Shown one piece after another: positions 19,688 through 62,690 of a DNA stretch of 64,000 nt. The notes below the pieces were generated by a model that was not told the DNA's origin, did not search any database, and saw nothing but the letters and a program-made list of their open reading frames with translations. Position numbers and translations under genes: made by a program. Within the stretch, counting starts at the first letter, position 1. Every line of letters begins with the position of its first letter. The stretch comes from Nitrospinaceae bacterium (GTDB taxonomy: Bacteria; Nitrospinota; Nitrospinia; Nitrospinales; VA-1), in NCBI GenBank assembly GCA_016763735.1, contig JAESTE010000006.1, positions 778-64,777 of the forward strand, read 5' to 3'.

Positions 19688-19722
19688 GTCGACCATCAAA
19701 GTCGACACCACACAGAGTCGAC
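19688..19722. promoter_or_regulatory. cluster of three GTCGAC(T) motifs upstream of the RING-like gene
   Basis: GTCGAC at 19688, 19701 and 19717. In gene sense this reads GTGTCGACTCTGTGTGGTGTCGACTTTGATGGTCGACTCTGTGTG, 40-75 nt upstream of ATG 19648. Confidence 0.5.
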
Positions 19723-20385: not shown

Positions 20386-20419
20386 CTTTTTGTGGCAGTT
20401 GAAGTTGTGAAGTGTGTGA

Positions 20420-20454
20420 GTCGACGCCCACACAAAGTCGACACCAAAGTCGAC
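20420..20454. promoter_or_regulatory. cluster of three GTCGAC(T) motifs upstream of the ankyrin gene
   Basis: GTCGAC at 20420, 20437 and 20449. In gene sense this reads GTGTCGACTTTGGTGTCGACTTTGTGTGGGCGTCGACTCACACAC. It forms a roughly 50-nt block about 90 percent identical to the block upstream of the next gene (21178-21250). Confidence 0.5.
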
Positions 20455-21177: not shown

Positions 21178-21206
21178 GCGGTAGATTGAAGGTGTGAGGT
21201 GTGCGA

Positions 21207-21323
21207 GTCGACACCCACACAAAGTCGACATCTGGGTCGACGTCGACTTGGGGGTCCACTCCACACTCCACCAAAGTCGACCAACATGTCGACTTACGAA
21301 GTCGACATCGAAGGCATGTCGAC
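21207..21323. promoter_or_regulatory. divergent promoter region with eight GTCGAC motifs
   Basis: GTCGAC at 21207, 21224, 21236, 21242, 21276, 21288, 21301 and 21318. The region lies between the minus-strand ATG at 21177 and the plus-strand ATG at 21286. The last three copies fall in the first codons of the plus-strand gene. Confidence 0.55.
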
Positions 21324-23076
21324 TCATGTGCATCGTGCCTTGTCATTGCGCCACATGGACCGCTCCGAGCTGAAACGCAGGGTGCCGTACTCGATCAGGG
21401 GACCCCAGAAGTACGTCCGGGAGTTGCACGAACGCTACGTCAACACGATACGTGCGAACTACCCTGCCCTGGCCGACGTGACCTCTGTCATGGTGTACGA
21501 CACGTCCCAGATGGATTGCCGGTCACACATCCGTGCCTTGCCGGTGCGTGCGCTGGTCAAGTGTATCACCACCAACACCCGCTTCCTGTTCATCGTGTTG
21601 GGTAACGCTGCCGACCGCAACGTCTCGGTGTGGGGCTGGCTGGACATGCAGTGGTTCACCTGGTGTGTGCTGGACGCCTCCCTCAAGACCCAGCTGGGGG
21701 TACGCTCCAACCAATGCACCAAAAACCCACCCGTGCACACGTCGTTGTGGCAGACCAGCATCGCCACCAACCTGTCGCTCCCCACCGACTGGAAACCCCC
21801 CAACCAACCCATGGACCTGGGTACCTTGGACTTTGTCTTGCGTCAACACATCTTCTGGCTGGGCTGTGTGCGCAGCAAACTACCCCTTCCGTCTGCTGCC
21901 CTGCTGGCCAACGACGACGCCGTAAGAGAGGACGAGTGGGCCGCCACCTTCCTGTGCTACATGGCCAGCTACGTCTACCGTGTCCATGCTCCTGCCGCCT
22001 GGGAAGCCTTTGTGTGGCGCTGGAACGTGCTGGAACGTCAACTGTTCCGCCTGCGTCTGAGTCGTGCACACCGACACAGAGTGGTGCCCCTGGCGTCCCA
22101 TATCCTGCGCACCAACCTCAAGAGGTACCGAGGCGTGGCGGCTCCGGTCGTAGGGCAGCGTGGTCTGCACATCCCGGCGTTCAGTGTGCCCTTTGAAACC
22201 GTGCCGTACCTGGTGTCCCGTCGTCTGGTGCCCTTGAAGCAGGGACAAGCACTGTTGTCCCCCATGCAGCTGGAAGACTTGGTGGTGCAGAGGTTCCAGC
22301 TGGTAGACCCCTTCGGAGACGGACGCCCTCACTACTCCACGTGGGACTTTGCCCAAGACAAACGCTTCGCCGGCCTCAAGCCTCACCTGCAGAAGCTCCA
22401 GCTGGCAGTACTGGGCACCTCTCCCTCTGAGTCTACCCCCGAGATTGCCCGTCCGCCTCTACAGAGCGCGCTGCACTTCACCCCCTGCATGGTGGCCATC
22501 CACAAGAAGTGGCCTCACTTGCGCTTTGGTCCGCGTCAACTGTACGGCAAGGTCATGTCGCTCCTGAAAGTGTCGTTGCCCTACCTCCAGGGTGTGTGGA
22601 CTGGGCCGTGGCGCAGACACTACGAGAAGAACGCAGAGTCCGAGTCACGCAGCATCGTGGCCTTTTGGAAGAGCCAGCGCAAGCACGTGGACACCCGCGC
22701 GGCACTAGACCCTTCGCATGCCGGCCCTACGTGTCGTCAGATGTGTTCGGCCCACCTGTGCCCCTTTGCCACGGCTACTGACCCACTGGAAGCACAAGAC
22801 TCGGGACGTGCCCGGTGCAGCATCTCTATCGGGTTGCGCAAGGCCGGAGACATTACACACGTGTTCCACAAGACCACTGTATTGAGGCAAACGTTCAGCA
22901 GGCAAGCAGTGGCGGTCGACAAGAAGCACCATCTCGCCGACGAACTGGCCCGTGCACCGCCCACCCGTCCCGTTCCACCCCCTGTGCGCATGATCAAGCG
23001 GATGCGTCGCACGGTTACTGTAGACTACGACGTGAACGAGATGGACGAGAAGTCATCGAATGAACGAAAGCATTGA
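21286..23076 (+). CDS. eukaryotic/archaeal-type DNA primase large (Fe-S) subunit-like protein
   Basis: ATG at 21286 (the upstream part of the track ORF is promoter). HFTPCMVAIHKKWPHLRFGPRQLYGKVMSLLK matches the PriL signature HFPPCM...HLR..GRQQ..LFLK. About 80 aa later, GPTCRQMCSAHLCPF matches the ..C...GCPF Fe-S ligand region. References are yeast Pri2 and human PRIM2, recalled from memory. Confidence 0.5.
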   Translation: MSTYEVDIEGMSTHVHRALSLRHMDRSELKRRVPYSIRGPQKYVRELHERYVNTIRANYPALADVTSVMVYDTSQMDCRSHIRALPVRALVKCITTNTRFLFIVLGNAADRNVSVWGWLDMQWFTWCVLDASLKTQLGVRSNQCTKNPPVHTSLWQTSIATNLSLPTDWKPPNQPMDLGTLDFVLRQHIFWLGCVRSKLPLPSAALLANDDAVREDEWAATFLCYMASYVYRVHAPAAWEAFVWRWNVLERQLFRLRLSRAHRHRVVPLASHILRTNLKRYRGVAAPVVGQRGLHIPAFSVPFETVPYLVSRRLVPLKQGQALLSPMQLEDLVVQRFQLVDPFGDGRPHYSTWDFAQDKRFAGLKPHLQKLQLAVLGTSPSESTPEIARPPLQSALHFTPCMVAIHKKWPHLRFGPRQLYGKVMSLLKVSLPYLQGVWTGPWRRHYEKNAESESRSIVAFWKSQRKHVDTRAALDPSHAGPTCRQMCSAHLCPFATATDPLEAQDSGRARCSISIGLRKAGDITHVFHKTTVLRQTFSRQAVAVDKKHHLADELARAPPTRPVPPPVRMIKRMRRTVTVDYDVNEMDEKSSNERKH

Positions 23077-30300: not shown

Positions 30301-30403
30301 TCGTCCACCAAGTTACCAAATCCCTGCACACACATGAACAGTCAGCCACAGCTCCCTTTGCGTCGCGTCCAGAGCTCCTGGCACTCACCATAGCAAAAGA
30401 CAT
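27321..30403 (-). CDS. large acidic Ser/Asp-rich protein, family B paralog (spliced, two exons)
   Basis: Exon 1 is 30389-30403 (ATG TCT TTT GCT ATG). The intron is 30324-30388. Exon 2 is 27321-30323. The N-terminus (GFGNLVDDLIGADFTGMNP...PMGDNLLDAVFD), the VPVCMPVE motif and the C-terminus (IDIDSDTDSDCE) all match the 36378-37347 gene. Long acidic/Ser tracts. Confidence 0.65.
30324..30388 (-). other. 65-nt spliceosomal intron
   Basis: In minus sense the sequence reads ATGTCTTTTGCTATG|GTGAGTGCC...CATGTGTGTGCAG|GGATTTGG. Both junctions are in phase 0. The intron is at the same position as the intron in the paralog at 36381-36447. Confidence 0.65.
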
Positions 30404-30449
30404 AGTTTCGGGGTTTGGGATATTTCGGATATTTCGGGATTTACTGAAA

Positions 30450-30806
30450 ATTTGGACTTTGACTTTTGGAATTATGAACCAAAAGCCAAGTCGTCGACCA
30501 CCAAGTCGACTCAAGAATGGGAAAATTTGGACGACCACCGGAATATATCAGGATGGCCAAAATTTGGACGACCCTCCCCGATCATCCTCTTGGCCATTTT
30601 TTTGACACCACACCAAAAAGTCACAAAGAGGTGGAAAACACCGGACACAACCAGTTGAACTTTTTGTTTTCTTGGGTGGGGTGCACTTCAAACTTTTGAG
30701 AATCTTGATAAATTCCGGTGGTCGTCCAAATTTTGTCAATCCTGAGTCGACTTGGTGGTCTTCGACTTGAACTTTTCGTCACAATTCCAAAAGTCAAAGT
30801 CCAAAA
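30450..30806. repeat. imperfect inverted repeat (103-bp arms) forming a mirror-symmetric divergent promoter
   Basis: Left arm 30450-30552 and right arm 30704-30806 are reverse complements at roughly 80 percent identity by eye. Each arm carries GAGTCGACTTGGTGGTC and AATTCCAAAAGTCAAAGTCCAAA. The region is locally AT-rich. A third copy of AAAATTTGGACGACC lies in the spacer. Confidence 0.75.
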
Positions 30807-30831
30807 ATACTTCAAGTCTAAAAAGTTCACC

Positions 30832-39286: not shown

Positions 39287-40120
39287 ATGCCTTCACCTCT
39301 TACCATTGCATCCACCATGGGTTCGTGTGACAGCTGCCTCGTGGACGACGCGGTACGGGTGGAGCGGGTGCAGGGCAAATCCAATGAGCTGTTGGGCAAC
39401 ACCTTGAAGGTGCAGCAACGCACCCTGGAGGCGGCACTTGGGACCTTGCAGAAGACCGAACTGGCCGTGAAGCGCCTGCGGATCAAGGCCAGAGAGTTGA
39501 ACAAGGGCCCCACCCAGTCGATGAAGGTGGCGATGCAGCGCGAACTGGTCAAACGTAGGCAAGCAGACCGGGCGGTGAAGGCCAGCCAGGCCAACATCTC
39601 CCGCACCCACGGCATGATGAACATGGTCACCAAGCTCGGGGACGCCCATACCACAGCGCAACTGCAGAAGGACTTGCAGAAGAACTTCAAGAAACTCAAG
39701 CTGGACCCAGAGAGGTTAGAGAAGTTGATGGAGACCGGGGGCGACATCAACGACAGCATCGAGGAGGTGGCCAGCATTGCAGACCAGTTCACGGGCGGAG
39801 ACAACGTGGACGCCGAGGTGGAAGAAGAGATGGAGAGCATCTGGAACATGGACGGCGACGACGAGTTGTCCACCAACGAAGAGGTGAACTACGACCTGAG
39901 CAAGACTATGCCCGACGGACCCTTGGAGGATCTGGAGGAAGAGGAGAACGGGACGGGGATGTCACACCTGGGCAAGCGAGGACTCGTCAAGAACCCCAGC
40001 ATCAAGGAACAGGTGCATATAGGCCAAGGGTACCGCCAGCTGAGCCACGCCGAGCAGTTGCTGAACCAAACCACCAATCTGGAAGACGTCAACTTGAAGG
40101 TTTTGGTCAACACCGAATGA
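39287..40120 (+). CDS. ESCRT-III (Snf7 family, CHMP2/Vps2-like) protein
   Basis: By-eye alignment to human CHMP2A. LKVQQRTLEAALGTL aligns with LRQNQRALNRAMREL. AMQRELVKRRQ aligns with IMAKDLVRTRR. ASQANISRTHG aligns with LMRANIQAVSL. KKLKLDPERLEKLME aligns with RQLKLPQIQKIMME. An acidic helix DAEVEEEMESIW follows. An alternative start at 39317 (caccATGg) gives MGSCDS, an N-myristoylation consensus. Confidence 0.65.
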   Translation: MPSPLTIASTMGSCDSCLVDDAVRVERVQGKSNELLGNTLKVQQRTLEAALGTLQKTELAVKRLRIKARELNKGPTQSMKVAMQRELVKRRQADRAVKASQANISRTHGMMNMVTKLGDAHTTAQLQKDLQKNFKKLKLDPERLEKLMETGGDINDSIEEVASIADQFTGGDNVDAEVEEEMESIWNMDGDDELSTNEEVNYDLSKTMPDGPLEDLEEEENGTGMSHLGKRGLVKNPSIKEQVHIGQGYRQLSHAEQLLNQTTNLEDVNLKVLVNTE

Positions 40121-40181
40121 ACTTGACGTGAACCCCCTGTACACATTTGAATTTACGAAAGTATTTCTCAAGTCTTCCGCG

Positions 40182-40710
40182 AAGTATTTCCTAAGTATTC
40201 GACAAGTATTCCTTCGAGAGACTTGAGAAATACTTGTTGAATACTTGAGAAATACTTGTCAAATACTTTGTACCGAGATTCTGCTGAAGTCCGATCGAGA
40301 GGGGGGGTAGGGTCTTGTTCCCCCCTAACCGACCGGTGCCTTTTCGGTGAATAAATAGGTTCACCTTTTGTGACAGCAATCAATTAACCGAGATGTCAGG
40401 AACCGTGAAACCTATAAGGTGGGGTTTTATGATATAGTCGGTAGATGATTGACTGGTACTATGCACAGTAGGACTAGTCCATCCTGGATTAATACCCAAA
40501 CTATACCCCGGGGATAAACCTATTTACCGTTTGAGAACATAGTCCCGAAAATACACCGATCGGTTAGGGGGGAACAAGACCCTACCCCCCCTCTCTATTG
40601 GACTTCATGAGAATCTCGGTACAAAGTATTTGACAAGTATTTCTCAAGTATTCAACAAGTATTTCTCAAGTCTCTCGAAGGAATACTTGTCGAATACTTG
40701 AGAAATACTT
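40182..40710. repeat. large imperfect palindrome (157-bp arms, about 215-bp AT-richer centre)
   Basis: Left arm 40182-40338 and right arm 40554-40710 are reverse complements at more than 90 percent identity by eye. The arms are built from AAGTATTTC/GAAATACTT sub-repeats plus GGGGGGTAGGGTCTTGTTCCCCCC. Weaker symmetry continues inward (40345-40365 versus 40512-40530). The element lies in the 708-nt gap between convergent genes. Confidence 0.85.
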
Positions 40711-40828
40711 GGTGGAAACCTTACAAAAACTTCAGCTCGACTCGCAACACTACGAAGTGCGAACCTCCTCAGGATGAACGCAGAGAAAAGGGGGTGCACA
40801 GGAGACTTGGGAAATTTCTCAAAAACCT

Positions 40829-42748
40829 TTAGTTCACGTAACTTTGCACCAGATCACACAACACACTGGGCAGACGACGGTTGTGAAACAGCGCCTGACG
40901 CGTGACCTGTGCGGCCGACATGCCTGCGGCGGTAGTGGTAAGGGCCATCCAAGGCAGGGTGTGTGCCTGGGCACAGAACGCCCGCACAGTCTCCGAGCAC
41001 ACGCATATGACGCGCGCCTCACTTCGTGTGTCGTCAACCTCCAGGTCTGGAGAGAACACACACTTCACCGGTCGTTCGTGATAAGACGGGGCGGTGTACC
41101 AAGTGAAACAGTCCTTCTTGTCGCGCGGCTGGTACACGGTCAACGTGAGCTCTCCTCCCCCTGGGTTGCGGGAGTAGACGTCTCCCGCCAGCGACCAAGG
41201 CAGGTCGTACACGGCAACGTGTGTGCACCGTACGGTACCTCCTGGATTGGCGTAATTGCTGTCTGGGCCGATGACAAAGTCCACCACAAGTTCCAGTGTC
41301 AGGGTCATGGACATGATACAGGGGTCGTACGCCAGAAGCAGCACCCTCAGCGAGTGCAGATGGATCAACGTACTGCATCCCGCCACGAGTCCGTCAGGGT
41401 AGCCGACCGGAGCCAGGTCCATCATGTCGGGGTCGAGGGACACGGGGCCCGGGTCGCGCGGGCACAGGTCGGCGGTGTTGATCAAGGGAAACGCACTGTC
41501 TTCCTGGTGCAGTATGTCGTATATGAGTAGCGCCGCGCGTACCCGGTTTGTGTGACCTCTGAACCCGGGCCGGGCCTTTTCAGACTCGAAGAATACCGGG
41601 GGAGGCAGTCGGTCGTGGTCTTCGCAGAAATGTGCGTACACTTGCTTGAGGGCAGTGACGCGCTGGTTGGCGATGCGGGCCAGGGAATGGGGGATGACAG
41701 GGGCCAGGGTGCGATGGAAACGACGAAGTACACACTCCAGTGCACACTCGTCACCAAACAACACGAACTCGGCGGCGTGCTCCACGCCGAGCAGCTCCGA
41801 GAAGGTCCATGGGACGAGGTCCACGGACCGTGGCAAGAATACGGGAGGCAGCGCGAACAACTCCTCTGCGGCAAACGTCGAGCACGCCTTGTGGAATTGG
41901 ACGTGGTAGTTGGCGAGGGGGTCGAAGTACACGACACTCCTCCCGCCGTTGCCCACGGACAGGCGGCACCCCAACTTGACCATGTCGTGGTACAGTCCCA
42001 CGGTCATCATGCGAGACAACATGGACATCATCGCGGTAGGTTCGGAACACTGGAACGCAGACACTAGTGATGTGACGTCGGCACTGTACCAGTCGAGGTC
42101 CCGCTCGGTAAAGGTTGTGAGGGGCAGGGGAAGGGTGTGGATGGAGCCGACCAGCACAGGAGCCTGTCCATGCAGAGAACGACGCGAGAGGTGCATGAGG
42201 TCGTTCCCGGCCAGGTTAGACGCGGACGCGTTTGGGGCACGGTAATTATGGTCGAGTTTGTCGAGTCGACCCCAGTACGTGTCCATGGACAGCGAGGAAA
42301 TGCCGTCGGGGCGTCGTCGTGTCCGACCTTGAGCCTTCCATTCACGAGACCCTTCCACGCCTGTGGTGAACAGCCCGCCGCAACGCACAGGGGATGCCAT
42401 GAAGTCGCGTACATCGCCGAGAATGGTTACTTGGGCTGTGCTGGCACGTCCGGGTAAACAAAGCACCATGATCTTGGCACGCTGACGTGCGTCCAGGCAC
42501 CCGAAGTCGACAGGGGCCTGGTCGATGAGGTACTGGACAGTGGGGGTGATGGCGTACGTTTGGCGGAGCCCTCGGGTCCCGCCCACGGGGTCCAGGTCGG
42601 CGAAGGACATACGTGACGGGGCATGACGCTTGGGCTGTATCTCGGGAGGCATACGAGACGACGCGGCCTGGCTGCGATGAGGCGGAGTGTAGGGCAGGAC
42701 CTTGCGCTTGCGCGTGGAGAGGTCATCAGGGTCCATGGCACTTGACAT
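40829..42748 (-). CDS. family A protein, paralog 2
   Basis: The track ORF runs to 42997 across the promoter motifs and the neighbouring gene's 3' end. The ATG at 42748 gives MSSAMDPDD. It shares TADLCPRDPG, IPHSLARIANQRVTALKQVY and the C-terminal LPSVLCDLVQSYVN with its paralogs. Confidence 0.6.
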   Translation of the reverse strand: MSSAMDPDDLSTRKRKVLPYTPPHRSQAASSRMPPEIQPKRHAPSRMSFADLDPVGGTRGLRQTYAITPTVQYLIDQAPVDFGCLDARQRAKIMVLCLPGRASTAQVTILGDVRDFMASPVRCGGLFTTGVEGSREWKAQGRTRRRPDGISSLSMDTYWGRLDKLDHNYRAPNASASNLAGNDLMHLSRRSLHGQAPVLVGSIHTLPLPLTTFTERDLDWYSADVTSLVSAFQCSEPTAMMSMLSRMMTVGLYHDMVKLGCRLSVGNGGRSVVYFDPLANYHVQFHKACSTFAAEELFALPPVFLPRSVDLVPWTFSELLGVEHAAEFVLFGDECALECVLRRFHRTLAPVIPHSLARIANQRVTALKQVYAHFCEDHDRLPPPVFFESEKARPGFRGHTNRVRAALLIYDILHQEDSAFPLINTADLCPRDPGPVSLDPDMMDLAPVGYPDGLVAGCSTLIHLHSLRVLLLAYDPCIMSMTLTLELVVDFVIGPDSNYANPGGTVRCTHVAVYDLPWSLAGDVYSRNPGGGELTLTVYQPRDKKDCFTWYTAPSYHERPVKCVFSPDLEVDDTRSEARVICVCSETVRAFCAQAHTLPWMALTTTAAGMSAAQVTRQALFHNRRLPSVLCDLVQSYVN

Positions 42749-42831: not shown

Positions 42832-44310
42832 TTAATACAAATAATCTGTCACAACCTCTGACAGGGCACGGGGGAACGCAGCCCGGCGCTCCAACATGGC
42901 GCGGGTCCCGGCCACGAACCGGTGCTGATGGGCCAGTTTGCGCACCACGTACCAGGGTAGGTCCTTGATCTGGGTGACCATCTGTCCCGCGGCACACTCC
43001 AAGGTGGCTATGTATATATCAGAATCGTGTACGCCTCGGACCTTGCCCTGAAAGCCCGTGGCGAGCGATCTGGTTGTATGTTCGCTCCAGTGCAGCGCGT
43101 GTGCGTGATGGACGGCATGGGTGGGGCGGTGGAGGGTGTACTCTGCGATGACGTCCACAATACGCGCTTCGGACGGAGGCTTCATCTGCTTAGGCGAGTC
43201 CACCGCAAGGGGGTAGATGAGTGTCGTCAGGCCGAGACGCATGGTCAGGATCCCGTGGCCGGCGTGATAGTCCAGGCTGAGGAGGGCAATGTCACGGACC
43301 CAAGTCCGGTAGACGGGGGTGGTGCAGGTCATGCAGCAGGACATGTGGAGAGGGCACACGTCGGCTGAGGTCGCGGCGTTCACCACCCGTTCCACATCTC
43401 CTGGTCCCAGACCACGCAGTGCCTCGGACAAATAGTCAAACTGGCGTCCGTACCTCCAGCTGCCGCCCCAGCTGCCGTCCGGTACAGTAACTTTGCATGA
43501 CTGGGGGTTCTCGTGAGGGGTGTCCATACGCAGGGTTGAGGCGGGGGCAGGGTCATAGGTAATGTGGAACGAATCGTACAACTCCTTCAGGTCGGCGACG
43601 CGTTCGTGTGCGATGGTGATGGCCATATTCCATAGGGCCGGGACGATGATCGTGCGCAGCGCGTTGTCGAGAGGTTCGGCAGCTGCGACGCTCCTCCCTT
43701 GCGTGAAGTCTTCGGCTTCGCGGCGACTCAATTTGCACGGAATACCACGTGGTTTCACACAGTCCAGAGTATCGGGTGGAGGCGGGTAAGAGAGATGGTA
43801 TGCGTCAAAGGGGACGTGTGCCCACCCGCCTCCACCCGTGCAGGGATCTTTACCGCGTGCAACCCATTGTTGGCTGAGTCCCAACGCCATCATGCGTACG
43901 GTGCTCTTGAAGACAATACTGTAGGAGTGCAGGTCGCGGTTCCTCTGGGGGGACACAAGGAAGGTCCAGTCGAGCAACGTCTTGTCTATCCAACGCAGAT
44001 CCTTAGAGGTTCGGGTGGACTCGGGCATGGTGTGAGTGGTACGAAAGGGGAGTACGACCACGTCCATCAGCTGACGAGCGGCCGCGTGCTGTGTCAGGCG
44101 TGAAATCTTGAGGTCGGCCTCGAGGAACACCGTGGAGTAGCCAATGGTAGGGACAATGTTCAGAAGAAACGGTTCCTCGTTGCGTCGGGCGGCGGACTTG
44201 GTCTCGTCCATCAACCTCTGGCGGGAGTGCCGGGTCGTTTCCAAGTATTCAGAGGTCGTGGCCATCCTGGGGCGTTTCACTGGAGTCGACGACGAGGCAG
44301 CAGCAGACAT
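42832..44310 (-). CDS. family A protein, paralog 3
   Basis: The track ORF starts with TTG at 44328; the first ATG is at 44310. It shares SADVCPLH, VPALWNMAITIAHERVADLKELY and the C-terminal FPRALSEVVTDYLY with its paralogs. ATTAAA (42831-42836, minus sense) overlaps the TAA stop. Confidence 0.6.
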   Translation of the reverse strand: MSAAASSSTPVKRPRMATTSEYLETTRHSRQRLMDETKSAARRNEEPFLLNIVPTIGYSTVFLEADLKISRLTQHAAARQLMDVVVLPFRTTHTMPESTRTSKDLRWIDKTLLDWTFLVSPQRNRDLHSYSIVFKSTVRMMALGLSQQWVARGKDPCTGGGGWAHVPFDAYHLSYPPPPDTLDCVKPRGIPCKLSRREAEDFTQGRSVAAAEPLDNALRTIIVPALWNMAITIAHERVADLKELYDSFHITYDPAPASTLRMDTPHENPQSCKVTVPDGSWGGSWRYGRQFDYLSEALRGLGPGDVERVVNAATSADVCPLHMSCCMTCTTPVYRTWVRDIALLSLDYHAGHGILTMRLGLTTLIYPLAVDSPKQMKPPSEARIVDVIAEYTLHRPTHAVHHAHALHWSEHTTRSLATGFQGKVRGVHDSDIYIATLECAAGQMVTQIKDLPWYVVRKLAHQHRFVAGTRAMLERRAAFPRALSEVVTDYLY

Positions 44311-44312
44311 GA

Positions 44313-44403
44313 GTCGACAGCAGGTCAAGTGAACGTTTGGGATAATTTTACATAAAACATCGACTCAAGTCGACACCCGAGTCGACTCCTAACACAAGTC
44401 GAC
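44313..44403. promoter_or_regulatory. cluster of four GTCGAC motifs upstream of family A paralog 3
   Basis: GTCGAC at 44313, 44369, 44381 and 44398, with a fifth at 44285 inside the coding start. In gene sense this reads AATGTCGACTTGTGTTAGGAGTCGACTCGGGTGTCGACTTGAGTCGATG. Confidence 0.5.
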
Positions 44404-46813: not shown

Positions 46814-46898
46814 GGTCGACTATGAGAAGTTACACTCAGGTCACAGAGAGTCCTGTGTGACTGTCAAGTATCCTGAGCCTGACCTGTGTGTCGTCAGC

Positions 46899-47918
46899 AT
46901 GGACCCGAACACGCAAGATACCGACCCGGCGTCCCGTGCCCAGCGCAAGGCAGACCGGGCCGCGGTGCGTGCGCTTCGACGCCTCAAGCTAGAGGAGAGG
47001 GCACGCAAGAAGCGCAAGAAAGCAGTCAAGGTGTCGACTCCTGCGCCTCTTCCGCTCCCGGTGTCGACTCCGCCAGAATCGACAGTTTACCCCGGTGAAC
47101 TCCCTGACTACTGGGCCGGACGTCGGGCAGCGGTGCGTGCACACCTCGAAGCCACGCGAGTCCCGGGCTTTGTCCCCCCTTTCAAAAGAGTGTGGCATAT
47201 CCCGGGGTACTGGCGCAAGGCCTGCGTCCTGTTCCGCACCTGGTACATCACCAAGTGGTGTGAGTCAGACGCGGCGAAACGGTTTCGTTTGATGTCTGGT
47301 GCAGTGTCACGACGTCTGAGTCACGCTCAAGACACCCTACCGGTGAACTTCCGCTGGGTGCAGTTGCTCTGCAACTACCAGGACCCCGAGGTCGGAGACT
47401 CTTTGGTGTGGAATTGGGCTCAGCAACTGACTCAAGTGGAGACATCTGAGCAACTGCAACACGCTCTGGACCACACCCCGCACCTGACAGGTGGACTACT
47501 CAAGGCTGTGCTGTTGGCTGCGCTGTGTGACACCACGGCCAAGACCCTGTTGAAGAACTCCATCGCTCCGTGTCGTGTGGGACTGGGCACCTTGCCGCGC
47601 AACACCAAGAAAGCGAGCAAGGCTGTGCGTCAGCAACATGAAGAGGATGCCACCTACGCCGGGTTCTCGCCGACCTCCCAGCAGGCTGTACCTGCCAGAC
47701 TGCCTCGCGCCCCCGCAGCCCGAGGTGGTCGCACCGTCGTCGCCAAGAAGAGGAAGAGGGTCGGGGGAGGTGGCCATGGCCATACAGGGAATGGACGGGC
47801 TGCTGACCACGGACGGGACAGTGTTGGGGTCCGACGCAAGGTCCATGCCTCTGGCCGAGACTCGGGAGTCGGTGGAGACAGGAAGCAGTCTGGACCACGC
47901 CCGCCTGGCCAGCTCTAA
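46899..47918 (+). CDS. hypothetical basic protein (3' end uncertain)
   Basis: The first ATG clear of the divergent nuclease gene is at 46899 (MDPNTQDTDP); an alternative ATG at 46812 overlaps the opposite-strand ATG within CCATGG. Third-position G/C is strong up to about 47690. After that the +1 frame, which carries the next gene, looks more coding. Confidence 0.4.
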   Translation: MDPNTQDTDPASRAQRKADRAAVRALRRLKLEERARKKRKKAVKVSTPAPLPLPVSTPPESTVYPGELPDYWAGRRAAVRAHLEATRVPGFVPPFKRVWHIPGYWRKACVLFRTWYITKWCESDAAKRFRLMSGAVSRRLSHAQDTLPVNFRWVQLLCNYQDPEVGDSLVWNWAQQLTQVETSEQLQHALDHTPHLTGGLLKAVLLAALCDTTAKTLLKNSIAPCRVGLGTLPRNTKKASKAVRQQHEEDATYAGFSPTSQQAVPARLPRAPAARGGRTVVAKKRKRVGGGGHGHTGNGRAADHGRDSVGVRRKVHASGRDSGVGGDRKQSGPRPPGQL

Positions 47919-52809: not shown

Positions 52810-52923
52810 AAAAGTCGACTTTGGAAGTCGACATTTAATGTTTTCTTATTACACCCTCTGTCGATGTCGACTTGGTGAAATGTCGACTTTCGAATCAACA
52901 CGGGTGAGTCGACCGGGGGGAGG
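52810..52923. promoter_or_regulatory. divergent promoter region with six GTCGAC motifs
   Basis: GTCGAC at 52810, 52824, 52837, 52876, 52892 and 52918. The region lies between the minus-strand ATG at 52730 and the plus-strand ATG at 53052. Typical units are AAGTCGACTTTGG and ATGTCGACTTGGTG. Confidence 0.55.
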
Positions 52924-55753: not shown

Positions 55754-56362
55754 ATGCCTCCCAAGAAAGTCCCCCAAAGTGGCAAGAAGACCAAGAACCT
55801 GCCTCGCCCGGTGCGTCCGCGCAAGAGACGCAAGCTGATCGAGTCGGGTACAGCCCACAAGATCAGGGCCAAGTCTGTCAAGCACCAGGCGCGGCGGGTC
55901 GCAGACTTGGCAGAGGGGCGCAAGGGCCGGTCCCGTCCCTTTGTGTGTGCTGCGTGCAAGGTCAAGACCACGGCATTAGTATTGTCTCGAAGGTGTGCGG
56001 CGTTCCATACCGCACTGGCCCCCGACACCTACGGCATTCGCTACTCTCTCATCTACGCGCGGGTGCTGGAACGGCTGGACGAGGGACACGGGGTGCTGTG
56101 TGGCAAGTGCGAAGGCTACCCAGACGCCAACGTGTTCAAGGCTGAGCTGGAAGTGAACGACAACGTGTGGTTACGAAAGAATTTACTCAAGTGGTTCGGC
56201 GCGGCCGTGATCAAGGACATGCCCCCGATGTCAGAGGGTGGCACGTTGGTGCGCAAACCCAAAGGGCAACGAAGCAGCAGCAGTAGCAAGTCTGCCGTGG
56301 CGCCGGTCAGGCAGGAGCCGCCAACGCGTACCGGTCCAGTCGCCCCAAGTCTGCCCCACTAG
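55754..56362 (+). CDS. very basic protein with C-x2-C...C-x2-C zinc-ribbon-like motif
   Basis: gaccATGc at 55754 gives MPPKKVPQSGKKTKNLPRPVRPRKRRK. It contains CAAC...CGKC. The 3' end overlaps the convergent giant gene by 56 nt. Confidence 0.55.
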   Translation: MPPKKVPQSGKKTKNLPRPVRPRKRRKLIESGTAHKIRAKSVKHQARRVADLAEGRKGRSRPFVCAACKVKTTALVLSRRCAAFHTALAPDTYGIRYSLIYARVLERLDEGHGVLCGKCEGYPDANVFKAELEVNDNVWLRKNLLKWFGAAVIKDMPPMSEGGTLVRKPKGQRSSSSSKSAVAPVRQEPPTRTGPVAPSLPH

Positions 56363-59300
56363 AGAACATGCGCATCATCGCGCGCCATGTCTGACGAGGC
56401 ATCCCCGTCTGGATGAATTGAGGACATCCGTGCAGAAGACGACGAGGCTTCACGTGTGCCAGCATATGCAGCCGGCGCGCGTGCCACGATCTAAATATAT
56501 CAACCTTGTCTCCGTCCTTTAGTCTACCTGACCGCGCCACCTGTTCCAGTGCGTACCACCCCACGGTAGCGTCCGACAAACGTGGAGCGTCCAGCACCAG
56601 GTAGGGGGCCACACCCTTGGTGGGGAACATGCCACCGGTCGTGTCCATGTCGTTGGACGTCATGCCCATGGCCTCGTCCTCGTCTCCCGATTCTTCCTCT
56701 GATACTTCCTCTGGGTCGCTCTTGTAATCAGAGTCGTCTTCGCCGCTGTCGTCCACGATTAGAGTCGTCTTGGTGACGGCGTAGGACGACGACATACCCT
56801 TGAGCATACGTGGGGCTTGGTGCAGCACCAGGCTGGACAGTTGATGCAGACGGGTGTGCACGTCTGCCACGCTCTCGTGGGGTCGACGCCCGATACGGAT
56901 CTGGTTCATGCGTCGCACCAGGATGTCTTCTGATTTGACGCCTACCGGAACCTCCAGCTTGCCGTCAAACAACAACAGGTCACGGGCCTGGTCCGGCTCC
57001 GTCATGACGGTGTTGATCCAGGCCGCGCTGTCGTCTCGGTTGTAGTCGATAGGTCCAATGTCCATTGCGGTCTGCATGGCGTCGATCAGTTTCATGGTGG
57101 CGTGGGCCCGTTGCTGCTGTACCAAGAACAACTTGAGGTGGGACGCCAGCTTGCTCTGCCCGTACGACTGGACGGCTTCCGGAGTGGTGACAGTGCTTGC
57201 CACCAACTTCCGGGCCGCCTTGGGGATGTGTTGGATCCCGCCCAAGAACGACGCACGCTCCAGCAGTTCGCGGGTCAGGATGGAGTTGCGCAGAGAGGGC
57301 AGAGTACGGGTCATTTGCAAGGACGTGTCGGCGTTCCCGATCTTGTTGTCCCGTACGTGGCGCATGAGGGTTTGTAGGATGTTTGCCGAGCGCACACCCT
57401 TCAGTCCGGGTGTGTCAGGCATAGAGGTGTACTCCAGGTCGTCGCCGAGTTCTTTGAGTGACGCTGTCCATATCTCGGCCAGGGCTTTCTGGGCTTGTCC
57501 AGCGGCTCGTGCTTCCGCGAACTGTGCCACAGAATGCCACGGTCCGTCAGGGGAAGACAGTACACGGTTGAGGTTCTCCATGCCGGCCTCCATGACTTCG
57601 GGACCCGCGTTCCCTTGGGCCCGGGCGATACCGTAGTCGCGCAGAGACGTGAAGGCCTGGGTCACCAACGGGTCCAGTGTGTCCATGACGTCTCCCAGTT
57701 CACCCAGTTGACGCGTGGCCACGATCAACCAGCTGGCGGTAGTGAACTGTACGTTGGAAAGACGCGAGTCGTGTCGCATCTCCAACACGGTGGCGTGCTC
57801 CGTGACCCGTCCGGCCGCGGCAGAGCCTCCCACCAGATCAAACGACGTGGACGACCCCGAGGCACTGTCTGTGTCCAGGTCGGCGCCCAGGGTACGAGTG
57901 TAGCGTTTGAGTCGGGACACAATGCCACGAGCAGTGGACAAGGCACGAGGGGTTACGTCGTCCTTTTTCATTTGTGCCACGTACGTCAAGAGGGTGGCCC
58001 ATCCGTCCTGGTACGCCGCAGTGGTGAGGGCCAATTGACCATGGTTGCGGGAGGACGTGGCGTCTTCTATCCGCGTACGCAACGACAACACCACGTTGGC
58101 CAGGAACTGCACGTGAGCCACAGACGGTTCGGTGTGGGTGGGGTCCAGTCGCGGCGCAGGGATCATGGCCAGTTCCATCTTCTCGTCTTCGTCGTCTACA
58201 CGAGGGGGGAAGGACCCGGGTGCGTCCGTGCTACTGTTACGGTCGAGGACAGCAATCATGTCCCTGGTGTCTCGGATCTGCTGACCTCGACTGAGGAGCC
58301 GGGCCTGTGCCTCGTTGCTTTTCTTGGTAGGACGACCCTTCTTGGAGACCAGCTTGTTGTCTGTCTTCTGGCTGCGTTCCATGGCGGTCATTTTCTGCAT
58401 GAGGTCTCTGCGCTGAGGACCGTGGCGTGCTTCCACCAAGATGTTGTGCAGGGTGGCTCGAGTAGACGCAGTATGGGCAAACAGAGACACAGGGCGGCCG
58501 TACCGCGTGGAATCGTGGTCAGGGGTGTCCATGTCCATGCCTCGGCGTCCGGCAGCCACCAGGGTGTAGAGGGTAGACGTGTCCACCGAGGTAGGCACCA
58601 TGAGGGTGGCCAGCTGGAGCAACTGCCGGGCCTCAGCAGTGTACTGCAAGATGTCTCGCTCGGGTACACGGGCGTGCTGAACCCTGAACGTAGCGGCCAG
58701 GTCGGCGAACCGGTCATGGGCCGCGAACTCCTTGCGCATGAAGTGGACGGTAGCCACCAGGGTGTCAAGGGTGGACTCCCTGACGTTCTCTCGTGACGCC
58801 AAGACCATGAGATCGGCCCACGCACGGCGCCCAGTCTTTGACTCTGCCCGGATACTTGACGACGTGAACGCCAGCCACTTGTACTCTTCTGTGTTGCGCA
58901 ACGTGGCAATGGTCTGGGGCTCGTCTGTGTCGTCTGCAGTGAGTGCACTCGCGGGCAACAACCCGGCGTCACCTAGCGCCCCCCATATAGCTGTATTGAG
59001 GAGTGCCGGTACATCTTCGTCGTCGTCGCTGCTGCCACTGCTGCTCTCTTCCTCCTGCTCGTCTTCCTCTTCCTCCACGTCTTCGTCGCTGGCGTCCTCG
59101 TCCACGTACACCGAGACACGGATGTTCTTGTGGTGTATCCGTCGCTTGTCTTTGCGGCTGGTCTTGCGTTCCACGGCTCGTTCGGCAGAGGCCAGGGCCA
59201 CTACGTTCTCGTGGAACAGGAGTCCCACCTCAATGGCCGCCCCCAACGCCACACCGGACACACCACGTAGGGTGACATGGCCCAATTTGGACTCGGGTGT

Positions 59301-62300
59301 GGCCTTGCGGCGTGCGGCGAACTCCCGGGCGTCCAGTCGAACCGGATGGTCAGGGTACATGGACACGTCGGCCACCGTCTCGGCACGCACATTGGCCAGA
59401 GTGGTGTGGGCCTGGCGCTGGGCTTGACGTAGGGTGTCTTCCGTGGCCTGTGTTTGCTTGATGCGCTGCTCGGCCAAGTCAAAGTCAGACTTGTGGGACA
59501 CCAACACTCCCTTCAGGTTGGCTACTGGGGCCTTTCTGGCGTGTGCCGCCTCGATCTGAGCGTCCACCTCTTCCATACGGGTGTGTGCAGCGTCACGTTC
59601 TTTGGCAAACCAGGCCTTTTGGTGCACGGCCCGGTCCACCAACTCGGAGCGTACCTTCAGACGGGTCTCTGCGTGGGCCACCTTGCGTTCGTGGTACTGT
59701 TTGAACGCCTGGCCCTGGGCCCGGACCACCAATGTGCCCCATCCGCCTTGGTCAGCTGTGGATTCAAAGTTCTGGGTCCACGACGTCACCAACCGATGCG
59801 ACACCTCCGAGTCCACAGACAGCTGGGTCTCCAACGCGGTCATGGCGGCCTGGTGCACCGGCTTGGACGTGTCGGTGACGTACTTGTTGAAGAACTTCAT
59901 GCCGTGACGGGTCAGCAAGGCACGAACGGTGATGTGGCGTGCGGGCGGGAAGTACCCCTTGACCCCGAAGTACGCCATGATAAACCGTCGGGTGCCCAAG
60001 CTGAACTCGTCGTCCACGTTGATGCGTCGTACCATGTGCCACGCATTGGCTTTGCGTTTCTTGGGGACACCCTTCTCGTCTTCGTCTTCGCTGGTCCCGT
60101 CAGAAGTCCCGTCCGAGGTCCCGTCCGAGGTCCACCCGTCCTCTGACCCCGACGACTCGTCGCCTGCTTCCCGTCCAGGGAGTGCGGCCGGGTTAAGCAA
60201 CAGGAAGCGGTTGCGCAAGGCTATGCGGGCCCGCTTCAAGCTCACACGTGTCACCTGGTCCAAGTCAAACTCCTGGTCTCGGGCCACAGTGACCAGGCTG
60301 GCTTGGCGTTGGTTCCATTCTCTGGTGCTGGTAAGGCAGCGCTTGTCGCGTAGCAGCAGCAACAACAACTGTTCACGGTGGTTGTTCAGCTCCACCGACC
60401 GGTCGCCCTCCAGGGTCTGCACGATGGCAGTGGCCCATTGCATCAACCACTCGGGGGAGGTGGTGGACTTGGGGGCGAACTGCTTGAGTTCCTCCACAAA
60501 CTCCATCCTCTGCGACGACACCGCTGCGTCTACTTGTGCGTGGGTGCTGTCTGCGGCATTCACCAGACGGGTGGCCTTGGCGTGGGGAAGGTCGGAGGAA
60601 GAGTCGTCGTCGGAGTCACGGGCCTTGCGTTTGGTGGTGACCACTGCCTTGTCGTCCTCGTCTTCTTCTGTGTCTGCCTCGGCGAACGCGTCCACGTCCA
60701 TGTCTTTCTCGTCCGGGGCTTCGTTGTCTTTCTCTTCCATGTCCACGTCCATGTCTTCCTCTTCCGATCCACGACCGAACGACTTGGGTACACCGTGTGC
60801 GCGGGCCCGTGCCAGGACACGTCTCATCTCCCCCGAGTCTCCGTCGCTGCACAGGGCGTCGTACACCACAGACAGGGACCGCCCGGTGTCGTACACAGAC
60901 TTGATGAGGTCCATGCCTTGCCTGCTGAGCCGTCCCCCGCCCATGCTGGCACGGCTGTCGGACATGTCGGACAGCTGGTTGATGACGATGGTGGACAGTT
61001 GGGTGCTGGTGGCGTCAGGTTTGTCTTGGGCCAGACGCACCACCCGCGTGGCCACCGCCATCATGATCTCGCGGTACACGTCACGGTGCAGGTGGGCAAA
61101 CTGGTTGGCGGCCTTGTTCACGTTCTTCGATTCCCTTCTGATGGCTTTGGCGTCTTGCTCCTTCAGGGGTTTCTTCTTCCACGCGGCCAAACGTGTGGAG
61201 GCTTCCTCCCAGAGGTTCACGACATGGGGACCCCAGTCCAGTGACAAAGTGATCTGACGCACCAGGTGACGGGCCAACAGACCCACCAAGGGCTGGAGAG
61301 ACTTCATGGTCTGTCGCGCGGCTGCCTGGTCCATGCCCAGTGCGCCACTGTCCGACACCACCCGGTGAAGCAGCTCGTGTTCGGCCAGTACGTTGAGTGA
61401 GGTGTCCACTGCTTCGGGGTGCCACAGACTCTGGTGGGTAATCATCAACCGGTCGATTGCGTAGATCGAAGGGAACTCGGGCTCGTCCACGGCTACCCCG
61501 TAGGTCGCCCCAGAGAAGGTGAAGGGGGTCGCCACGATCAAAACCCCCGACGGGTGCTTGGGCAGCAGAGAAGAGGGGATGCCTCCCAGCGGCACCGACT
61601 CGGCGTACATGGACACCAAGGCGTTGACGTGATGGATGGACTCCTGCAGGATCATGGCAGGGATGGGTAGCATGGGCTGGGGATTGAACAGCTCGCGCAA
61701 CTGGGCGTCGCGGCGTATGTCCACAGGCCCCAGCAGGTCGCACCGGTCGAAGCCACAGAACATAGTCTGCTGTTCCAGCCAGGCGCTCACCCGGAAGATC
61801 CACGCGTACCGGTGGCACACGGGGCACATGAAGATCACGCGTTCCTGTAAGTGGTAGGTGTGCATCTGGCGTCGCTCCTGGGTACGTTCGCTCAACAGGC
61901 TGCGCAAGAGCATGGGGTCGTACGCGTGCTTGTTGGCCCGGACTTCGTGGGCGTCTTTGATGGCCAGCAGCAGACGGGACCGTGCGTTCGAACCTGACGA
62001 CAGTTCGGTGTTGCGTGCACCAGGCATGAGGGAAGCGTGTGCTTCGTCGTCGAAGACCAGTCGGGCTTTGAAGGCCGCTTGCTTCTTGCCAGTCAACCCT
62101 CTGAGCTGGTCCGGGGTGGCGAAGGCGGCGTCCTCTCGAGCAGGGATCAAGTGGCTCAGCGGGTGTTGAGGCTTGTTCAATTGTGATCCGTAGCGGAACC
62201 CGTGTTCTAGGCGGGGTGCACGGTATACGAAGCGGGCGGCACTGACGGCGACCGTGTGGGGGTCGTTGATGGGGGCGATCGACAGTCGGATGGCGTTGAT

Positions 62301-62690
62301 CATGGCGGTCACAGAGTGGAACTTCACCCCGTTGGCTTGGTACAGCAGGTCTGTGCGGCGCTGATGTTCCCGGGCAGCACGGGTGTAGGCCTTGCGTGCC
62401 TTGGCCCGGGGCGCACACAGCAGGATGGGCATGTCGGGCAGACGACGCCACTTGGCCCACCGTATGACCCGCTTCTGCACGCCGGCGTGGTCGGCAGGGT
62501 CGTGGGGCAGCAGTACGTTGGACATGGCCACCGTGGCGTTGTCTGCGTGGGCCCAGGGGTGCACCATGATTATGGTCCAGGGCATGAGGTTGTACGCCAT
62601 GGCCGCTTTCCCGGCATTGGGGGTCCACAGGGCATTGACCTCCACCCGCAGCCGGGCCACGGGCTTTCCCTTGCGTTCGGTCGAGGCCAT
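56307..62690 (-). CDS. giant protein of unknown function (about 2127 aa)
   Basis: The track ORF starts with TTG at 62759; the first ATG is at 62690 (MASTERKGKPV). Mostly helical-looking sequence with several acidic tracts and a DGTSDGTSDGTS repeat. No catalytic motif recognised by eye. Confidence 0.7.
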   Translation of the reverse strand: MASTERKGKPVARLRVEVNALWTPNAGKAAMAYNLMPWTIIMVHPWAHADNATVAMSNVLLPHDPADHAGVQKRVIRWAKWRRLPDMPILLCAPRAKARKAYTRAAREHQRRTDLLYQANGVKFHSVTAMINAIRLSIAPINDPHTVAVSAARFVYRAPRLEHGFRYGSQLNKPQHPLSHLIPAREDAAFATPDQLRGLTGKKQAAFKARLVFDDEAHASLMPGARNTELSSGSNARSRLLLAIKDAHEVRANKHAYDPMLLRSLLSERTQERRQMHTYHLQERVIFMCPVCHRYAWIFRVSAWLEQQTMFCGFDRCDLLGPVDIRRDAQLRELFNPQPMLPIPAMILQESIHHVNALVSMYAESVPLGGIPSSLLPKHPSGVLIVATPFTFSGATYGVAVDEPEFPSIYAIDRLMITHQSLWHPEAVDTSLNVLAEHELLHRVVSDSGALGMDQAAARQTMKSLQPLVGLLARHLVRQITLSLDWGPHVVNLWEEASTRLAAWKKKPLKEQDAKAIRRESKNVNKAANQFAHLHRDVYREIMMAVATRVVRLAQDKPDATSTQLSTIVINQLSDMSDSRASMGGGRLSRQGMDLIKSVYDTGRSLSVVYDALCSDGDSGEMRRVLARARAHGVPKSFGRGSEEEDMDVDMEEKDNEAPDEKDMDVDAFAEADTEEDEDDKAVVTTKRKARDSDDDSSSDLPHAKATRLVNAADSTHAQVDAAVSSQRMEFVEELKQFAPKSTTSPEWLMQWATAIVQTLEGDRSVELNNHREQLLLLLLRDKRCLTSTREWNQRQASLVTVARDQEFDLDQVTRVSLKRARIALRNRFLLLNPAALPGREAGDESSGSEDGWTSDGTSDGTSDGTSEDEDEKGVPKKRKANAWHMVRRINVDDEFSLGTRRFIMAYFGVKGYFPPARHITVRALLTRHGMKFFNKYVTDTSKPVHQAAMTALETQLSVDSEVSHRLVTSWTQNFESTADQGGWGTLVVRAQGQAFKQYHERKVAHAETRLKVRSELVDRAVHQKAWFAKERDAAHTRMEEVDAQIEAAHARKAPVANLKGVLVSHKSDFDLAEQRIKQTQATEDTLRQAQRQAHTTLANVRAETVADVSMYPDHPVRLDAREFAARRKATPESKLGHVTLRGVSGVALGAAIEVGLLFHENVVALASAERAVERKTSRKDKRRIHHKNIRVSVYVDEDASDEDVEEEEDEQEEESSSGSSDDDEDVPALLNTAIWGALGDAGLLPASALTADDTDEPQTIATLRNTEEYKWLAFTSSSIRAESKTGRRAWADLMVLASRENVRESTLDTLVATVHFMRKEFAAHDRFADLAATFRVQHARVPERDILQYTAEARQLLQLATLMVPTSVDTSTLYTLVAAGRRGMDMDTPDHDSTRYGRPVSLFAHTASTRATLHNILVEARHGPQRRDLMQKMTAMERSQKTDNKLVSKKGRPTKKSNEAQARLLSRGQQIRDTRDMIAVLDRNSSTDAPGSFPPRVDDEDEKMELAMIPAPRLDPTHTEPSVAHVQFLANVVLSLRTRIEDATSSRNHGQLALTTAAYQDGWATLLTYVAQMKKDDVTPRALSTARGIVSRLKRYTRTLGADLDTDSASGSSTSFDLVGGSAAAGRVTEHATVLEMRHDSRLSNVQFTTASWLIVATRQLGELGDVMDTLDPLVTQAFTSLRDYGIARAQGNAGPEVMEAGMENLNRVLSSPDGPWHSVAQFAEARAAGQAQKALAEIWTASLKELGDDLEYTSMPDTPGLKGVRSANILQTLMRHVRDNKIGNADTSLQMTRTLPSLRNSILTRELLERASFLGGIQHIPKAARKLVASTVTTPEAVQSYGQSKLASHLKLFLVQQQRAHATMKLIDAMQTAMDIGPIDYNRDDSAAWINTVMTEPDQARDLLLFDGKLEVPVGVKSEDILVRRMNQIRIGRRPHESVADVHTRLHQLSSLVLHQAPRMLKGMSSSYAVTKTTLIVDDSGEDDSDYKSDPEEVSEEESGDEDEAMGMTSNDMDTTGGMFPTKGVAPYLVLDAPRLSDATVGWYALEQVARSGRLKDGDKVDIFRSWHARRLHMLAHVKPRRLLHGCPQFIQTGMPRQTWRAMMRMFSSGADLGRLDRYALAAPA

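Follow-up and report, generated by a model that had tools for sequence, protein, structure and literature searches.

A 574-bp compound palindrome with helically phased heptamer arrays, a candidate replication origin in a putatively viral contig deposited as Nitrospinaceae

Which function might be served by a large, nearly symmetric stretch of non-coding DNA that lies between two convergent genes? The question is raised by a palindromic element in a 64,000-nucleotide stretch of contig JAESTE010000006.1 (assembly GCA_016763735.1, positions 778 to 64,777 of the forward strand), hereafter called the window, which is part of a 65,708-bp contig in an NCBI metagenome-assembled genome (MAG) labelled Nitrospinaceae bacterium (locus tags JKY23_...). 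The element fills the 708-nt gap at 40121-40828 between the stop codons of two convergent open reading frames (ORFs). Elsewhere in the window, convergent neighbours overlap or leave 0-60 nt between them, apart from one pair separated by 291 nt, and because the nominally larger gap of 824 nt at 46.8-47.6 kb is covered by an ORF, the gap at 40121-40828 is the largest truly non-coding stretch, as had been stated in a first-pass annotation made from the letters alone. On the evidence set out below, we tentatively favor the view that a sequence-specific DNA-binding protein docks on the element, which would act in cis, most likely as a replication origin or one of several, while holding this reading with rather less than even confidence.

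The palindrome is real, statistically overwhelming and cleanly structured. A repeat search returned, as the dominant inverted repeat, arms at 40170-40347 and 40545-40722 of 178 nt each, which are 93% complementary and separated by 197 nt, and a gapped local alignment widened these arms to 40159-40347 and 40545-40732 with 173 of 189 columns identical and one indel. The whole compound palindrome, to which no strand is assigned, measures 574 bp (40159-40732) and consists of a left arm (40159-40347), a core (40348-40544) and a right arm (40545-40732). When the region 40150-40740 was folded as single-stranded DNA (ssDNA), a free energy of -214.2 kcal/mol was obtained, compared with -60.3 ± 5.0 kcal/mol for dinucleotide shuffles (z = -30.7). 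The first-pass annotation had placed the reverse-complementary arms at 40182-40338 and 40554-40710, of which 150 of 157 positions do match; the symmetry that it described is thus borne out, whereas its limits fall short, with the true ends lying about 23 nt farther out on each side. It had also described an AT-richer core of about 215 bp, and the core, 197 nt long, is indeed AT-richer than the window (GC 0.41 against 0.598), but the repeat arrays of the arms are AT-richer still (0.32-0.34); the G/C-clamped hairpins of the arms reach 0.71.

Both arms are palindromic in themselves, which gives the element two levels of dyad symmetry. Each arm contains about five forward and about five reverse (C)AAGTATT units, followed toward the core by a 33-nt linker and a G7-TAGGGTCTTGTT-C6 hairpin. 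In the left array (40159-40268; GC 0.336), whose 11-bp phase is overlaid by a 22-bp super-period, the forward units begin at 40159, 40170 (AAGTCTT), 40182, 40193 and 40204, and reverse units at 40218 (degenerate), 40229, 40240, 40251 and 40262. The right array (40624-40732; GC 0.321) is the mirror of the left, with forward units at 40624, 40635, 40646, 40657 and 40668 (degenerate), and reverse units at 40682, 40693, 40704, around 40716 (degenerate) and 40726 (AAAACTT). AAGTATT/AATACTT units, the nested sub-repeats seen at first pass, run throughout both arrays, and the element holds 15 exact heptamers, two with one mismatch and about three that are more degenerate, that is, about 20 sites, spaced by 11 nt almost throughout. 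By Tandem Repeats Finder, a 22-bp period (92% matches; repeat unit CAAGTATTTCTCAAGTATTCAA) fitted better than one of 11 bp (78-85%), as the array alternates between two types of unit. Statistically, the array is a property of this locus: the paired pattern AAGTATT-N4-AAGTATT has 11 matches in the window, all of them inside the element, compared with 0.01 expected, while exact heptamers occur only four times in the other 63 kb, against an estimated chance expectation of about 2.5.

Inward of the arrays, the left linker (40269-40301) leads to the left hairpin, GGGGGG-TAGGGTCTTGTT-CCCCCC (40302-40325), with one extra G before it that makes it G7-N12-C6, and the right hairpin (40567-40590) is its reverse complement. 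This G6-TAGGGTCTTGTT-C6 feature, which had likewise been picked out at first pass, is present once in each arm and nowhere else in the window. The core between the arms is non-palindromic (GC 0.406), and its residual symmetry is weak and confined to its edges. No ATG-initiated ORF of at least 20 aa was found in the 574-bp element, the core included. Matches to bacterial promoter or terminator consensus sequences in the element stayed at chance level, no tRNA or known RNA family was found, and the core matched no Rfam family and showed marginal RNA structure (RNA fold z of -2.0 and -2.5).

Comparison of the two arms revealed how their differences are distributed. Nine mismatches were found in 40182-40347, at 40191-92 in a unit spacer, at 40283-84, 40293 and 40296 in the linker, and at 40333 and 40339-40 at the inner edge. 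All nine lie outside the heptamer cores and outside the 36-nt block (40297-40332) that encloses the left G/C hairpin and is identical between the arms, and the chance that six independent events would all avoid the heptamers and the G/C hairpin is about 0.03 by our own estimate. Divergence is greatest in the outermost 23 nt, where 14 positions match and one indel occurs, compared with 95-100% identity farther in; arm identity is therefore highest internally and decays toward both edges, and no sharp element boundary is visible. This pattern fits constraint or gene conversion centered on putative binding modules and is unlike that of transposons, in which the termini are normally conserved best.

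Through computing nearest-neighbour duplex stability across the window at scales from 50 to 600 bp, the element was found to be the least stable duplex in the 64 kb at every scale. At 100 bp, the two arrays rank first and second in instability and the core third, and at 600 bp the element stands at -1.294 kcal/mol per step, about six standard deviations from the mean of the window (-1.524; standard deviation 0.036).

A change of strand composition was also observed near the element, as the cumulative G-C curve has its minimum at 39.5 kb. Since gene orientation also switches at the element, orientation was included as a covariate when the skew at third codon positions (GC3 skew) of 98 coding chunks was regressed on orientation and side of the breakpoint. 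The orientation effect was -0.08, and a residual side effect of +0.05 was left, with the best breakpoint at 36-41 kb, a range that contains the element; in a rotation control with the breakpoint fixed at 40.4 kb, the observed F was reached in 3 of 500 trials. The sequence is C-rich before and G-rich after the breakpoint, and a switch from minus to plus is also the polarity of bidirectional origins in bacteria, whose leading strand is rich in G (PMC8941118). As the shift is modest and its breakpoint broad, we use it as support only.

The element appears to be unique within the sequences searched. No second copy or fragment of the arm, hairpin or array was found elsewhere in the 64-kb window. 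In IMG/VR, exact and degenerate motif scans gave only chance matches in AT-rich genomes or in phage helicase coding sequence; scans of the GTDB genomes, a collection that does not hold the source MAG itself, gave no match to the element, nor did blastn against phage and plasmid records. When the metagenomes of the Joint Genome Institute (JGI) were scanned for the forward-forward...reverse-reverse arrangement of sites, no copy of the whole element was recovered, and the matches comprised 12 coding-sequence coincidences from one (phage) helicase family and two short contigs. One of these, L103 (PVBE012372050.1, 1138 nt), carries at 670-1095 a set of 28 CAAGTATT/AATACTTG sites, all in 11-bp pairs, among which are modules in the order forward-forward, 25 nt, reverse-reverse, spaced just as in the 574-bp palindrome and lying beside C/G runs; no protein or other DNA similarity to the window was found in it. 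As repeat arrays are common in metagenomes, the shared heptamer could be due to chance, and the array of L103, which may be an analogous element of another genome or a coincidence, is taken as a lead and not as evidence. The other contig, L109 (Ga0208374_1022639), is eukaryote-like and otherwise unrelated to the window; it has an AAGTATT array in forward-forward / reverse-reverse-reverse order at 285-375, which by eye has an apparent tRNA gene as its neighbour and is followed by an ORF whose C-x2-C...H-x4-H pattern resembles a BED finger.

Evidence that the element is not confined to one assembly came from a second sample. The window sequence was also found in ENA and Logan contigs of SAMN07571238/245 and SRR5988111/120, and a contig of an independent ENA assembly (L123, sample SAMN07571245) is identical over its aligned stretch to window positions 40083-40282 (200 of 200), running from the 3′ end of the upstream gene through the left repeat array. 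The contig stops at 40282, a single base ahead of the first arm/arm mismatch inward of the array (40283-84); when an inverted repeat exceeds the k-mer in length, a de Bruijn graph is expected to branch at this point. Since an independent assembly shares the left junction, the element is real and occupies this locus in another sample as well; no empty site was seen. The core could occur in both orientations in the population, which would be invisible within any single contig. Another contig from the short-read assembly of the source samples, L095, also breaks near the element and ends at window position 40985.

What kind of genome carries the element bears on how it may be read. Approximately 92% of the window is coding, on both strands, and start codons lie in A/C-rich, Kozak-like contexts (caccATG, gccaccATG; for example at 38844, 39287, 53052 and 55754), whereas no Shine-Dalgarno motifs were seen at them. 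Nearly all ORFs are orphans; domain scans of 39 ORFs gave four signals only, namely EGF, ankyrin, a weak primase large-subunit match and a sub-threshold DUF6861 match, and no PHROG matches were found among the window ORFs. The DUF6861 match is the only hit in the two giant ORFs, 8320-16482 (minus strand, 2720 aa) and 56307-62690 (minus strand, 2127 aa), neither of which has a significant domain. The ORF at 21286-23076 (plus strand) is a very distant homologue of PriL, the large subunit of the eukaryotic/archaeal primase: an exhaustive HMMER search found 11 relatives at about 30% identity among 1.84 billion representatives, and the PriL domain PF04104 is present in 8 of the 10 relatives scanned; the match is genuine but distant. 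The ends of the window have no circular overlap. In its start contexts, coding layout and domain content the contig is unlike bacterial DNA, and we read it as probably belonging to a eukaryote's large DNA virus or episome that was mis-binned and whose lineage would be undescribed. The giant-virus setting assumed at first pass is accordingly plausible in the loose sense of a eukaryote-type large DNA virus, as far as sequence features can suggest it.

The same genome appears to have a regulatory motif of its own, (T)GTCGACT, for which 26 of 51 strand-specific matches fall in the approximately 8% of non-coding sequence, concentrated upstream of genes and often as 2-5 copies aimed at the gene in short upstream intergenic regions (16533, 19700-19716, 20419-20448, 21206-21318, 30504/30745, 42802, 44284-44381, 46815-47063 and 52813-52907). 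Its probable role in this genome is that of a promoter element or transcription-factor site; the 574-bp palindrome contains no copy.

How, then, might such an element work as an origin? In the mechanism that we propose, a virus-encoded initiator would recognize the (C)AAGTATT heptamer, and since sites lie one helical turn apart and in 22-bp double units, its protomers would be aligned along nearly one face of the DNA and would form two head-to-head sets of about five per arm. The four sets, being symmetric about the center, could load two oppositely oriented complexes, and their cooperative binding would bend and melt the region, with melting starting either in the repeat arrays or in the 197-nt core. 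After strand separation, the inner palindromes and the G/C-clamped hairpins may fold back and keep the strands apart, much like the Box3-Box1 hairpin of activated OriS of herpes simplex virus (HSV), which forms from inverted sites after unwinding (OriS*; PMC12543377). Bidirectional synthesis would then start with the virus's own primase, for which the PriL homologue at 21286-23076 is the candidate. The support for this is circumstantial and consists of the single copy, the phased and symmetric motif array, the arm mismatches that spare heptamers and hairpins, the least stable duplex, the broad skew breakpoint, the non-coding setting free of the promoter motif, the recurrence of the left junction in a second sample and the presence of a primase of its own; we infer protein binding, melting and initiation from this combination.

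Several points weigh against an origin. Many viral origins are found in divergent promoter regions, but the genes that flank the element converge. No initiator gene was recognized, and both neighbours are ORFans; searches with the flanking proteins found no homologues beyond the proteins themselves. The skew effect is small, its breakpoint is broad (36-41 kb) and it was measured on about 64 kb of a partial genome; moreover, skew is an established origin marker for bacteria and only a presumptive one for eukaryotic viruses. Low stability and dyad symmetry are not unique to the 40-kb element either, as both are shown by a second palindrome at 30.4-30.8 kb, and phased site arrays would equally fit tethering, partition or the binding of a transposase.

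The second palindrome has arms at 30451-30568 and 30688-30805 (118 nt, 83% complementary; ssDNA fold z = -12.9) and lies inside a 496-nt gap between divergent genes (30336-30831), which is the second least stable region of the window. It shares no sequence with the 40-kb element and has its own motif, AAATTTGGACGACC, in three copies found only there; it also carries GTCGACT motifs in mirror image and, at 30414-30437, a short tandem of GGATATTTC. It would most simply be a bidirectional promoter of symmetric build, and may also be a further candidate origin.

Compared with known systems, the element is in kind a sequence-unrelated newcomer to a familiar class, and in working principle its nearest analogues would be HSV OriS and the iteron origins. 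Iteron origins (F, P1, R6K, pSC101, lambda) are prokaryotic and have 22-bp helically phased iterons, an adjacent Rep gene and usually DnaA boxes. The element resembles them in its 22-bp (2 x 11 bp) tandem period in helical phase beside the least stable DNA and in its use of both direct and inverted copies; the feature by which iteron origins are recognized, helically phased tandem sites (here candidate initiator sites) beside an easily melted region, is present. It differs from them in a genome that looks eukaryote-adapted, in the lack of a recognizable Rep-like neighbour and in its palindrome-of-palindromes arrangement. As for HSV, OriS is about 45 bp and OriL 144 bp long. With HSV-1 OriS and OriL the element shares dyad symmetry, inverted initiator sites (here putative) around an easily melted spacer, and a place in the non-coding DNA of what is probably a large eukaryotic DNA virus (PMC12543377). 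The HSV origins, however, have three boxes and a short AT spacer and lie between divergent genes, while here about 20 sites in self-palindromic arms of 189 nt enclose a 197-nt center that is less AT-rich than the arms, between convergent genes.

Membership of the herpesvirus-type origins is accordingly not supported. The UL9 box CGTTCGCACTT, allowing up to two mismatches, has 14 matches in the window against 18 expected, and the UL9 core GTTCGCAC has 3 against 3.4 expected; no UL9-family or origin-binding protein (OBP) Pfam domain was found in the 39 ORFs scanned, in a window that is partial and whose proteins are generally too divergent for Pfam. One copy of the HSV UL9 box-I core GTTCGCAC occurs within GGTTCGCACTT at 40755-40765 (minus strand), 25 nt outside the right arm; having no symmetric partner, it was rejected as a chance match. 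Of the origin proposed at first pass, the general idea thus retains circumstantial support, while the specific picture of a herpesvirus-type lytic origin with an AT-centered palindrome fails, as the center is a non-palindromic stretch of 197 nt and the arms are AT-richer than it.

Two further ideas were considered and dropped. AAGTATT resembles the circovirus nonanucleotide AAGTATTAC, but a nick site of the CRESS/Rep type (circular, Rep-encoding ssDNA viruses) is contradicted by TATTAC never following AAGTATT here and by the motif lying outside the hairpin loops. A concatemer junction, a hairpin-telomere junction or fused terminal repeats were rejected because the arms are only about 190 nt long, the flanks are unrelated genes and the center is non-palindromic.

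The strongest rival to an origin is a non-autonomous DNA transposon of the foldback or miniature inverted-repeat transposable element (MITE) type, inserted between the convergent genes, with the arms as terminal inverted repeats, the phased repeats as transposase sites and the core as the "middle domain". The layout does match: at 574 bp and without coding capacity the element falls within the range of about 100-600 bp that defines MITEs (PMC4495683), and its long arms of short sub-repeats around a non-repeated middle correspond to foldback elements, whose arms have internal repeats with extra transposase sites around a middle domain (PMC4079207). It is also much AT-richer than the GC-rich surrounding sequence and swells a normally tiny convergent gap into the largest of the window, and nearly palindromic MITEs are known in a GC-rich giant virus, namely Submariner of Pandoravirus salinus (243 bp, inverted repeats of about 100 bp; PMC4495683). 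Like Submariner and the foldback transposons Tetris and Galileo, it is short, non-coding and nearly palindromic with long inverted arms. Those elements, however, are flanked by target-site duplications (of TA, or of 8-10 bp), end in sharp, conserved termini and occur in many copies (30 for Submariner); here neither a duplication nor a further copy was found, and no sharp termini are visible. A scan for direct repeats of 3-9 bp, pairing left ends at 40140-40189 with right ends at 40700-40759, found none that coincides with the symmetric ends of the palindrome, and no symmetric pair of ends has a duplication of 2-9 bp, in agreement with the absence of clean duplications reported at first pass, and the searches described above recovered no further copy. 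The identity gradient is the reverse of that expected for termini recognized by a transposase, the self-palindromic arms are unlike the usual end-directed polarity of transposase sites, and the second sample is identical at the locus with no empty site seen. The MITE alternative offered by the first-pass annotation is weakened by these results, since neither of two defining features, duplication and multiple copies, was found in the sequences searched, and we regard it as unlikely.

Somewhat less probable still is another protein-bound cis site, such as a tether for episome maintenance or partition (centromere-like), a packaging signal or a recombination signal. About 20 sites would exceed the need of most origins, the element is single-copy and non-coding, and two sets of about five 11-bp units around a spacer recall parC of plasmid R1, where two sets of five 11-bp iterons each bind one ParR dimer per iteron (PMC2241845). 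The iterons of parC, however, are all direct within 159 bp and flank the par promoter beside parM and parR, whereas here the sets are head-to-head within 574 bp, the promoter motif of the genome is absent and no ParM-, ParA- or ParR-like domain or recognizable partner gene was found among the window ORFs scanned. The G-run / T-rich / C-run block may be loosely like the pac motifs of herpesviruses. In oriP of Epstein-Barr virus (EBV), a family of repeats and a dyad symmetry element are formed by 18-bp palindromes in 30-bp repeats, in clusters about 1 kb apart that are mutually unlike. EBV oriP joins replication with episome tethering and would share with the element two clusters in which a single viral protein has many phased sites, a binding that is predicted here; no sequence or protein relationship exists between the two. 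The homologous regions (hrs) of baculoviruses are likewise AT-rich imperfect palindromes in the non-coding DNA of a large DNA virus and act as origins and enhancers via a bound viral factor (PMC4535591, PMC6669502), but they are dispersed and multi-copy, with 24-30-bp palindromes inside direct repeats of about 64-70 bp, compared with one copy in 64 kb and another layout here. A tether would leave the skew switch and the extreme duplex instability unexplained, although neither contradicts it, and it is only partly exclusive of an origin, as origin and maintenance functions often coincide.

We consider it very unlikely that the element has no function, being either a selfish or neutral palindromic duplication evened out by intramolecular gene conversion or an assembly artefact. 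Palindrome arms do homogenize by recombination, so that high identity alone is no proof of selection, and another large palindrome exists in the same window. Nevertheless, neutral duplication would not be expected to produce so many copies of one heptamer in strict phase, nor heptamer cores free of mismatches, and an artefact is made unlikely by the imperfect arms, the distinct flanking genes and the left junction reproduced in the independent assembly.

The weakest reading is a role at the RNA level, in which the inner palindromes would be hairpins for 3′-end processing or termination, as in the "hairpin rule" of mimivirus, or would resemble microRNA (miRNA) precursors. A near-perfect hairpin of about 85 nt does lie within 40-100 nt after each convergent gene (the 3′ flank of 39287-40120 has z = -4.1), the permissive Rfam matches are all miRNA-precursor look-alikes on the inner hairpins, and hairpin-dependent polyadenylation is known in Mimiviridae (PMC4402537). 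This role is nonetheless very unlikely, as the 3′ flanks of 40 genes show no genome-wide hairpin rule (median z 0.05 against 0.13 for coding controls), the first 120 nt after the minus-strand gene are unstructured (z +1.3), every Rfam score is far under the gathering threshold, and the 11-bp phasing, the outer palindrome and the 197-nt core would be left unexplained.

The genes on either side add little to the choice among these readings. The upstream convergent ORF (39287-40120, plus strand) encodes 277 aa, or 267 aa from the ATG at 39317, and the sole homologue found was its own copy in the NCBI MAG; the downstream convergent ORF (40829-42736, minus strand; 635 aa from the ATG at 42736) gave no homologue, Pfam or PHROG match in the searches made. 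In searches against PDB sequences no match was obtained. Single-sequence AlphaFold models gave a predicted local distance difference test (pLDDT) value of 34 for the 635-aa protein, which is uninformative, and of 57 for the 277-aa protein, modelled as a long helical hairpin with four short helices and an acidic tail. An ESCRT-III/Snf7-like identity of the latter was dropped, as neither Foldseek against PDB nor permissive Pfam searches supported it.

For a specialist, an origin-like palindrome in a large DNA virus would by itself be unsurprising; the value of this one lies in its clean anatomy and in the unusual genome around it, a contig deposited as Nitrospinaceae that is probably viral or eukaryote-associated. 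A bolder version of the origin reading, to which we give only a slim chance, would make the element the origin of an unrecognized lineage of eukaryotic large DNA viruses with a PriL-type primase and almost exclusively orphan genes, served by a new initiator that reads the approximately 20 CAAGTATT sites of the nested palindrome; the array of L103 would then belong to a system shared by several uncultured genomes. If the element is an origin, it would give a virus-like genome with almost no recognizable proteins a concrete cis element that can be tested, its 22-bp unit could be used as bait for the initiator protein, and its position would serve as a coordinate from which replication activity may be read in metagenomic coverage.

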